The notes beneath the pieces are model-generated. The model did no database searches, was not told the DNA's origin, and worked only from the letters and a program-made list of their open reading frames with translations. From an uncultured Clostridia bacterium (GTDB lineage: Bacteria; Bacillota; Clostridia; TANB77; CAG-465), in NCBI GenBank assembly GCA_947627255.1, contig CANQVI010000002.1, forward strand, positions 64,047 through 128,046: a stretch of 64,000 nucleotides of DNA. Direction: 5' to 3'. The position numbers were made by a program, and so were the translations under genes. The stretch's first letter is position 1. Each line of letters starts with the position of its first letter. Positions 56,988 through 57,584 of the stretch are shown in pieces.

Positions 56988-57584
56988 CTAATTGTATTTA
57001 AATATATTTAGTATTTCAGCTGCATCTGCTGTATCTATTATTCCATTTCCATCCATATCACCAATTTGCATATCTTCTTTTGAATAATTTTTATATTTGA
57101 AGATATTTAATGCTACTGCAGCATCTGCTGTATCTATTTCTCCATTTTTATCTAAGTCACCCTTTAATATTCCAGTTCCAACTTTTATTTCTTTACTTAC
57201 TTCAATATCTCCTAAAATATCAAGTGTTTTATTGGCACTTACTAATCCTTTTATTTTTATTTTAATATTACAAGTACCATCACGCTTAGCATTAAATGTA
57301 TAAGTCTTCGTATTTATTCCTTTGGATTCGTCAGTAGAGTCCCACCATAAATTTTCTATTAAAGGGTCGCCTGAAACATATTCTAAAACATTTCTATTGT
57401 ATTCTACTACTATACTATCATATGCAGCTACATATTGTCCAAAGTCTAAAGTTATTGTTATTTTTTTATTTACATCTACAGTATTATTAGATTTTATTTG
57501 CACGGCATTAATATTATTTATACAAAAAGTTAATAGATATAATATTAAAATGACCTTAAAAATATGATTTTTCTTTACTAACAT
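56988..57584 (-). CDS. Small secreted protein with a cohesin-like module plus C-terminal dockerin
   Basis: Signal peptide. About 110 aa (VQIKSNNTVDVNKKITITLDFGQYVAAYDSIVVEYNRNVLEYVSGDPL...TFNAKRDGTCNIKIKIKG...IKVG) parallel type I cohesin landmarks. The dockerin follows: GDLDKNGEIDTADAAVALNIFKY...GDMDGNGIIDTADAAEILNIFKY. Confidence 0.55.
   Translation of the reverse strand: MLVKKNHIFKVILILYLLTFCINNINAVQIKSNNTVDVNKKITITLDFGQYVAAYDSIVVEYNRNVLEYVSGDPLIENLWWDSTDESKGINTKTYTFNAKRDGTCNIKIKIKGLVSANKTLDILGDIEVSKEIKVGTGILKGDLDKNGEIDTADAAVALNIFKYKNYSKEDMQIGDMDGNGIIDTADAAEILNIFKYN

Follow-up and report, generated by a model that had tools for sequence, protein, structure and literature searches.

A short secreted protein of an uncultured gut Clostridia bacterium carries a dockerin and a compact module that may be a divergent cohesin

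We analysed a 64,000-nucleotide stretch of chromosomal DNA from an uncultured, non-cellulolytic gut Clostridia bacterium (contig CANQVI010000002.1; hereafter referred to as the window, positions 1–64000) and focused on a gene at 56988..57584 of the minus strand, which encodes a protein of 198 amino acids. Our preferred reading, to which we assign a probability of roughly 55%, is that this protein is secreted and serves as a monovalent connector, with a dockerin and a cohesin that is divergent, shortened and a member of an unannotated family. Dockerins without a recognisable cohesin are found in many gut and environmental bacteria, and their docking partners are an open question; the compact module described here is probably a candidate for the missing partner of the dockerin-tagged surface proteins that surround it. 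The strongest functional clue is the gene context, as all 15 loci that were fetched have a dockerin gene no more than 3 kb from the module gene. The cohesin likeness itself is partly supported, as an apparently remote, sub-threshold homology that becomes visible only when the whole family is considered.

The open reading frame (ORF) at 56988..57584 is a real gene. In the ORF list of the window it is complete and fills this interval exactly (198 codons; stop codon at 56988-56990), and orthologues of equal length, some near-identical and others 43–56% identical, are present in gut metagenomes and metagenome-assembled genomes (MAGs). A ribosome-binding site graded as strong, AAGGAGG, can be read on the same strand at 57589..57595, 5 nt 5′ of the ATG. 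Further upstream, a terminator scan placed a terminator-like hairpin of the minus strand at 57640..57672, where it ends the preceding gene for an 844-residue protein, suggesting that the 198-residue protein is expressed from its own transcript.

The encoded protein has three parts: a signal peptide (residues 1–27; 57504..57584, minus strand), a beta-rich module (residues 28–139; 57168..57503, minus strand), which we propose to be a divergent cohesin from its predicted fold and from the Pfam and PDB matches of its family, and a dockerin (residues 141–198; 56991..57164, minus strand). The signal peptide, MLVKKNHIFKVILILYLLTFCINNINA followed by VQ, is recognisable from its hydrophobic N-terminus, the AlphaFold2 (AF2) model and its conservation. 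By sequence, it has an n-region with KK, a hydrophobic core and INA followed by V at its end; AF2 predicts a helix over residues 2–20 and low confidence, by the predicted local distance difference test (pLDDT), over residues 21–25. Its position is kept across all relatives. The module and the dockerin are connected by GTGILK alone, a linker of about 5 residues, and no catalytic module is included in this layout, which thus consists of a single beta module and a single dockerin in a secreted protein. The original prediction, made from the DNA sequence of the window, had proposed just this arrangement, a signal peptide, a compact beta module and a dockerin with almost no linker, and the ORF, the AF2 model and the dockerin loops bear it out. 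Its statement that the module is shorter than canonical cohesins also holds, since the module has 112 residues as compared with 139 positions of the Pfam Cohesin profile and 130–170 residues of solved cohesins.

The C-terminal part, as judged from its sequence, is an ordinary two-repeat dockerin of the calcium-binding type. It consists of two 22-residue repeats, DLDKNGEIDTAD-AAVALNIFKY and DMDGNGIIDTAD-AAEILNIFKY, in each of which a complete DxDxNGxIDxxD calcium loop is followed by a helix; the AF2 model has helices at residues 152–164, 169–175 and 185–197. Residues 141–198 thus contain the two repeats by which type I dockerins (PF00404) are defined. The Pfam Dockerin_1 score of the protein (20.4 bits, E-value 6e-4) is below the gathering threshold of 22.9 bits, a shortfall that we regard as marginal because its orthologues reach 25–50 bits (maximum, 49.6) and because the PDB sequences closest to this part are dockerins, namely 8x39 (E 1.4e-7), 8ajy, 5nrm_B and 4uyp_B. 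A near-identical dockerin is encoded by seven ORFs of the window, the 198-residue protein and six other genes, and its recognition-helix residues in the 198-residue protein are the same as those of the six neighbours. The expectation that the module would be followed directly by the dockerin of its neighbours was therefore correct.

To assess the module as a family, we collected about 27 relatives, none of which carries a cohesin annotation; in public records, they are either unnamed or called ‘cadherin-like beta sandwich domain-containing protein’. A word-index search gave 7 relatives, an exhaustive hidden Markov model (HMM) search of 1.84 billion representative proteins gave about 15 true clusters, and genome and metagenome scans gave 12 further loci. 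The exhaustive search returned one match per protein, such that the module is single in every protein and never in tandem. Proteins with matches over multiple stretches (P0020–P0026) were dropped from the family, as they are of low complexity or made of repeats, and their Pfam matches are to unrelated families.

Of 17 modules scanned in isolation, 7 had Cohesin (PF00963; gathering threshold, 24.1 bits) as their best Pfam family, as did the family consensus and the relative at locus L009. The best of the 17 reached 23.7 bits, just short of the threshold, with an E-value of 6.2e-5. The family consensus scored 21.1 bits (E 3.7e-4), with its residues 2–60 aligned to profile positions 4–61; in the relative P0019, residues 2–89 were aligned to positions 4–105; and an independent metagenomic relative having the same architecture as the window protein scored 22.1 bits. 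All of these alignments are in register: they start at profile positions 2–4, run co-linearly and in one case extend up to position 105 of 139. The runner-up families among the 17 modules were BatD (3 members, E 0.007) and Inhibitor_I42 (2 members), and a scan of the module against NCBIfam returned nothing. When the 17-sequence family profile was compared with 177,635 distinct PDB sequences, the cohesins 1tyj, 2y3n and 2w1n were among the six best matches (E 0.5–1.5), with alignments spanning strands 1–4. The only PDB matches of a single module and of a 7-sequence alignment were to designer pentatricopeptide repeat (PPR) proteins; we discounted them as spurious products of accumulated repeats, no single stretch of them being significant. 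Co-variation between the module and the dockerin across loci was also set aside, because the two belong to one protein with one phylogeny, and some 15 sequences are too few to tell co-evolution from descent.

The predicted fold agrees with these matches. AF2 modelled the module as an all-beta sandwich of 7–8 strands with high confidence (pLDDT 92; predicted template modelling score, 0.82). In a Foldseek comparison with the PDB, the top structures were cohesin modules of Clostridium perfringens, 2jh2_A (E 7e-5, TMq 0.61), 2vo8 and 2w1n (TMq 0.64), the three spanning E 7e-5 to 4e-4 and TMq 0.59–0.64; overall, values for cohesins were E 1e-5 to 1e-4, template modelling (TM) scores of 0.5–0.64 and root-mean-square deviations (rmsd) of 4.9–6.1 Å. 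We envisage the module as a sandwich of about eight strands, in which a tight DFG turn would take the place of the long loop between strands 2 and 3 of canonical cohesins. Three weak signals, from the Pfam HMM, the PDB profile and the fold search, thus agree with one another, making it likely that the module shares common descent with cohesins.

The relatives fall into two architectures. Type A, to which the window protein belongs, has a signal peptide, the module and a dockerin (~200 residues), and its genes are always located within clusters of genes for proteins ending in a dockerin; these clusters are syntenic between MAGs. In type B (~410–535 residues), the signal peptide and the module are followed by a linker, a pair of cadherin-like domains, a transmembrane helix and, finally, a conserved cytoplasmic tail with the motif GIKLVDLDK.EGP.DELTFNIFENL. 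At six independent loci, the type B gene lies directly downstream of a gene for a dockerin-ending protein, with a gap of 15–512 bp; in one further lineage (L006/L007), the distance is 2.7 kb. Where it is complete, the gene 5′ of type B encodes a protein of ~751 residues with a Dockerin_1 match of 34.1 bits, Big_2 repeats and an Atl/SagB-like glucosaminidase domain, identified by matches to PDB entries 6fxo and 6fxp and to the NCBIfam family SagB. Such an arrangement resembles an operon of one receptor with one ligand, and the glucosaminidase/type B pair has the look of a tether that holds a cell-wall hydrolase by its dockerin. The pair was seen at L011 (7578-11503), and also at L008, L010, L012, L014, L015 and L006/L007.

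Some loci additionally encode proteins that consist of a signal peptide and tandem dockerins only (L003, 10659-11474 and 13930-15075; L004, 10715-11239; L002, 5386-6354). One of them, of 272 residues, has four dockerins (Dockerin_1, 99.9 bits over 4 stretches). The poly-dockerin genes adjoin the module-dockerin gene, and their dockerins fall into two or more sequence types. It is unusual for a protein to be built of dockerins alone, and such proteins imply that receptors of several specificities exist; for proteins made of a signal peptide and four dockerins beside the module gene to make sense, a dockerin receptor must exist.

According to the model that we propose, the module would bind the dockerin type common to the local adhesin-like surface proteins (those with BspA-type leucine-rich repeats (LRR), Big_2 and CAP domains), so that the 198-residue protein would link dockerin-tagged proteins to one another. 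Given that its own dockerin shares these recognition residues with the neighbours, the protein could in addition form head-to-tail contacts with its own copies, or bind the poly-dockerin proteins, and self-polymerisation is possible. The original suggestion of an adaptor or a self-polymerising unit draws strong, indirect support from the gene context. The type B relatives, with the module on a cadherin-like stalk and a C-terminal membrane anchor, would be cell-bound receptors, and the connector may be anchored to the cell through a protein of the type B kind or through another anchor encoded outside the window.

Several results weigh against the connector reading. The window protein had no match to Pfam Cohesin even at E≤10, and a PDB sequence search with its module returned no cohesin. 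The scores of those relatives that do match, 13.2–23.7 bits, all remain below the gathering threshold. The PF00963 check that the original prediction had proposed was therefore negative for the protein itself, whereas members of its family had matches, at sub-threshold scores of up to 23.7 bits. Comparison of the family profile with an alignment of CipA cohesins by hhalign gave an E-value of 0.062 and a probability of 0.9%, with a shallow and underpowered template (Neff 1.4), as the database search with CipA cohesin 7 had given 11 close relatives only. The family HMM scored CipA-type cohesins at 1.2–1.5 bits, values equalled by 85–117 of 2000 shuffled sequences (p ~0.05). Of the three sequence landmarks of type I cohesins originally claimed for the module, the first two reappear in the hhalign alignment, which pairs strands 1–2 ending in F and places AAYD...YN..VLEYV opposite ANCD...YDPNVLEI; the third does not, and the overall likeness to CipA is within chance. 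In the same alignment (E 0.062), the family-invariant Asp29 of the module lies opposite the strand-3 Asp of CipA cohesins, which we take to be a dockerin contact in the 1OHZ complex.

As to the fold, the 7–8 strands of the model compare with nine in the cohesin jelly roll; complement macroglobulin (MG) domains, CARDB and nanobodies scored nearly as high as cohesins in Foldseek; and no cellulosomal cohesin was among the top 50, though many are in the PDB. The structure prediction, another proposed check, thus went in favour of a cohesin in its best matches and against it in its strand count and in the near-equal scores of generic sandwiches, as far as a model can tell. Functionally, the window lacks a gene for an anchor, and a one-to-one connector with the same specificity at both ends brings no obvious gain in valency. 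A change of specificity from one end to the other, as in adaptor scaffoldins, is disfavoured by the helix residues of its own dockerin, which are those of the six neighbours, provided that the module binds the neighbours' dockerins.

We also searched the window for other cohesins. Among the 25 ORFs of at least 100 residues with a hydrophobic N-terminus, 21 were scanned against Pfam and none of these 21 had a Cohesin match; the other four are short and either overlap or run antisense to longer genes or are isolated. Within this scope, the suggestion that the module is the only cohesin candidate in the window stands.

The best-surviving alternative, which we consider unlikely but deserving of real weight, is that the module is itself a displayed passenger, such as a small immunoglobulin (Ig)-like or lectin-like domain for binding or adhesion, whose dockerin partner is either encoded elsewhere or not a cohesin. 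The passenger would be displayed through the dockerin, like the LRR, Big_2 and CAP neighbours, or on a cadherin-like stalk with a membrane anchor; surface adhesins usually have a head domain at the tip of a stalk or joined to a dockerin, and the neighbours in the cluster are all passengers bearing the same dockerin. The near-equal Foldseek scores, in which SoxY joins the sandwiches named above, fit this alternative, as do the failure of every member to reach the Cohesin gathering score, weak Pfam matches to Big_8, Big_12, BatD and Inhibitor_I42, and the match of the most divergent member, P0022, to Big_12 and not to Cohesin. Cohesin is, however, the repeated and specific top match, with E-values ~100-fold better than for any Ig family, and the PDB profile matches are cohesins. 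A passenger would also leave unexplained why the type B gene directly follows the dockerin-enzyme gene at six independent loci, and no candidate receptor would be left for the window's seven dockerins or for the pure poly-dockerin proteins.

It is improbable that the cohesin likeness reflects a chance pattern of alternating beta-strands in a lineage-specific module of unrelated origin. The chance-level result of the direct comparison with CipA cohesins and the sub-threshold scores of every Pfam match are as expected from such a coincidence, which is nevertheless hard to reconcile with cohesins coming first in three independent searches, with a best E-value (6.2e-5) that holds after correction for the ~30 sequences scanned, and with the constant register of the alignments relative to the profile start. 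A surface-displayed, chagasin-like (Inhibitor_I42) peptidase inhibitor domain of ~110 residues, which would be similar in size and also a beta-sandwich and to which some members have weak matches (E 0.0037–0.07; residues ~9–85 on profile positions 2–73 of 91), is barely credible, because these matches are 10–100 times weaker than those to Cohesin and absent from the window protein, the best PF09394 score is 18.0 bits against a threshold of 27.2, no chagasin/ICP structure was in the Foldseek top 50, the loop motifs of the chagasin family (NPTTG, GxGG and RPW) were not found in the family alignment, and the module gene has no linked peptidase gene.

Returning to the connector reading, we can extend it to an extracellular head-to-tail lattice of mini-cohesins that is cross-linked by poly-dockerin proteins and displays adhesin-like proteins on these non-cellulolytic Clostridia, with type B holding the glucosaminidase at the membrane. 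This extension is speculative and, in our estimation, rather unlikely. If it were true, no natural cohesin-dockerin unit would be smaller than the ~200-residue protein, and the system would serve surface architecture and cell-wall turnover, not polysaccharide degradation. The connector reading itself, if true, would mean that a 112-residue relative of cohesins overlooked by standard annotation is the dockerin receptor in this lineage. It would also provide a very small natural cohesin-dockerin pair for the engineering of protein assemblies, and would extend cohesin-dockerin biology to the display of adhesins and, in the relatives, to the tethering of cell-wall hydrolases.

The other dockerin-tagged proteins of the window are candidate clients of the module. 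Immediately upstream of the 198-residue gene, 57701..60235 (minus strand) encodes the 844-residue protein, which has BspA-type LRR (Pfam LRR_5, E 6e-41) and the shared dockerin, identified by a Dockerin_1 match and the dockerin motif; its N-terminal part has weak matches to a transglutaminase-like core (E 0.04) and to the MBG domain (E 0.1). By its domain content, it would be a surface protein akin to adhesins or proteases and not a carbohydrate-active enzyme. Next to it, a 414-residue protein (60403..61647, minus strand) has the shared dockerin by its motif and no function assigned by the Pfam scan; its orthologues take the equivalent position at loci L001 and L005. Downstream of the 198-residue gene, a 519-residue protein with CAP and three Big_2 domains and the shared dockerin (55327..56886, minus strand; Pfam) has orthologues that directly follow the module gene at L001 and L005, and a 270-residue protein with the shared dockerin (54341..55153, minus strand) scores 23.5 bits for Pfam Dockerin_1, above the cut-off. 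Two more genes form a distant cluster on the plus strand, where Pfam and the dockerin motif identified a 1104-residue LRR_5/Big_2/Flg_new protein (8623..11937) and a 291-residue LRR_5 protein (11942..12817), both with the shared dockerin. The dockerin passengers in the window are thus BspA-type LRR, Big_2, CAP and unassigned domains, and Pfam found no glycoside hydrolase among them.

Three small ORFs for non-secreted proteins precede the dockerin cluster on the minus strand (61769-62221, 62384-62866 and 63062-63685). They have no Pfam match, and their homologues hold an equal relative position at L001, L003, L004 and L005; the three ORFs (61769–63685) are part of a conserved neighbourhood. Directly 3′ of the cluster, the minus-strand gene at 52569-54173 encodes a 534-residue protein with N-terminal transmembrane helices, which had no match in Pfam and NCBIfam scans and is 70% identical to the product of the gene at the same position in L002. 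The 534-residue protein could be an anchor or export component. It is followed by a 192-residue ORF (51856-52434, minus strand) conserved in L002 and L005.

The similarity among the dockerins extends to the DNA. A 191-nt direct repeat, 80–94% identical, makes up the dockerin-coding DNA of five genes in the cluster at 54–62 kb (54338-54528, 55321-55511, 56976-57166, 57698-57888 and 60400-60590). Repeated downstream terminator segments (54257-54337, 57620-57700 and 60331-60411) are common to three dockerin genes of the cluster, and the hairpin at 57640–57672 recurs 3′ of two other dockerin genes. These features suggest that a dockerin-terminator cassette is kept alike by recombination or gene conversion. 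Plus-strand ORFs of 66–114 residues lie antisense to the repeats (54324-54668, 57684-57944 and 60395-60595) and have the peptide SAASAVS in common; they are not genes but artefacts that arise as mirror images of the dockerin repeats.

The window as a whole is a segment of a bacterial chromosome that is very rich in AT (26.5% GC) and includes the housekeeping genes for LepA, RecD2, PolA and RNase Y. Its nearest genomes are MAGs of uncultured gut Clostridia, the hosts being mouse, water deer and other animals. Neither a tRNA gene nor, at the gathering score, an Rfam family was detected in scans of the whole window (1–64000).

In its layout, the 198-residue protein resembles Ruminococcus flavefaciens ScaC (cohesin structure, 5lxv), which is likewise secreted and non-catalytic and has one cohesin followed by a C-terminal dockerin, the cohesin of the window protein being putative. 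ScaC is a connector within a cohesin-dockerin network, a role that is only proposed for the window protein. Adaptors of the ScaC type have a full-size, nine-strand cohesin and a dockerin whose specificity is unlike that of their own cohesin. The window protein, in contrast to ScaC, has a 112-residue module below the Pfam threshold, a linker of ~5 residues and a dockerin of the same type as that of its presumed clients, which are adhesin-like and not glycoside hydrolases. Monovalent adaptor scaffoldins are a recognised natural class, the second natural type of adaptor (PMC4959524).

Amy4 (Sca1) of the amylosome of Ruminococcus bromii also has a cohesin and a dockerin on one polypeptide; in this gut Firmicute, which is not cellulolytic, the Amy4 cohesin binds its own dockerin and those of others, including LRR and peptidase proteins, with multimers as the outcome (PMC4611034). 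The cohesin of Amy4 is recognisable as such and belongs to a large GH13 enzyme, whereas the window protein has 198 residues and no catalytic activity is apparent from its layout, and its binding to itself is hypothesised. The suggestion that the protein could be an unusual minimal building block therefore holds for its size, while the combination of cohesin and dockerin and the binding of a cohesin to its own dockerin were already known (PMC4959524; PMC4611034).

The best matches of the AF2 model, the cohesin modules of C. perfringens GH84C/NagJ and GH33 (2jh2, 2o4e, 2w1n and 2vo8), are also small (~133 residues) and used outside cellulose degradation, and 2w1n is among the best profile matches as well. 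They differ in being ~20 residues longer and internal to large toxins or enzymes, and the identity to them is 13–15%, at an rmsd of 4.9–6.1 Å. Cohesins invisible to HMMs are common in ruminococci, where they were recognised by means of AlphaFold (PMC13463774). Like the module family, these divergent cohesins were missed by HMM annotation and recognised through their fold and dockerin context. The ruminococcal groups keep the nine strands and have added helices, flaps or hairpins (PMC13463774), whereas the module family is reduced, never in tandem and found in very AT-rich uncultured Clostridia. For type B, and not for the window protein, there is an analogy with SagB-SpdC of Staphylococcus aureus, in which a peptidoglycan glucosaminidase is tethered to the membrane: in the relatives, the SagB/Atl-like glucosaminidase is encoded beside a membrane protein that is its putative membrane holder. 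The partner in S. aureus is a polytopic membrane protein, whereas the type B tether would be a pair of a dockerin and a cohesin-like module. Taken together with these systems, what would be new, if our model holds, is the compact, unannotated variant of the module, in a system with adhesin-like clients instead of degradative enzymes; the cohesin-plus-dockerin architecture has precedents.

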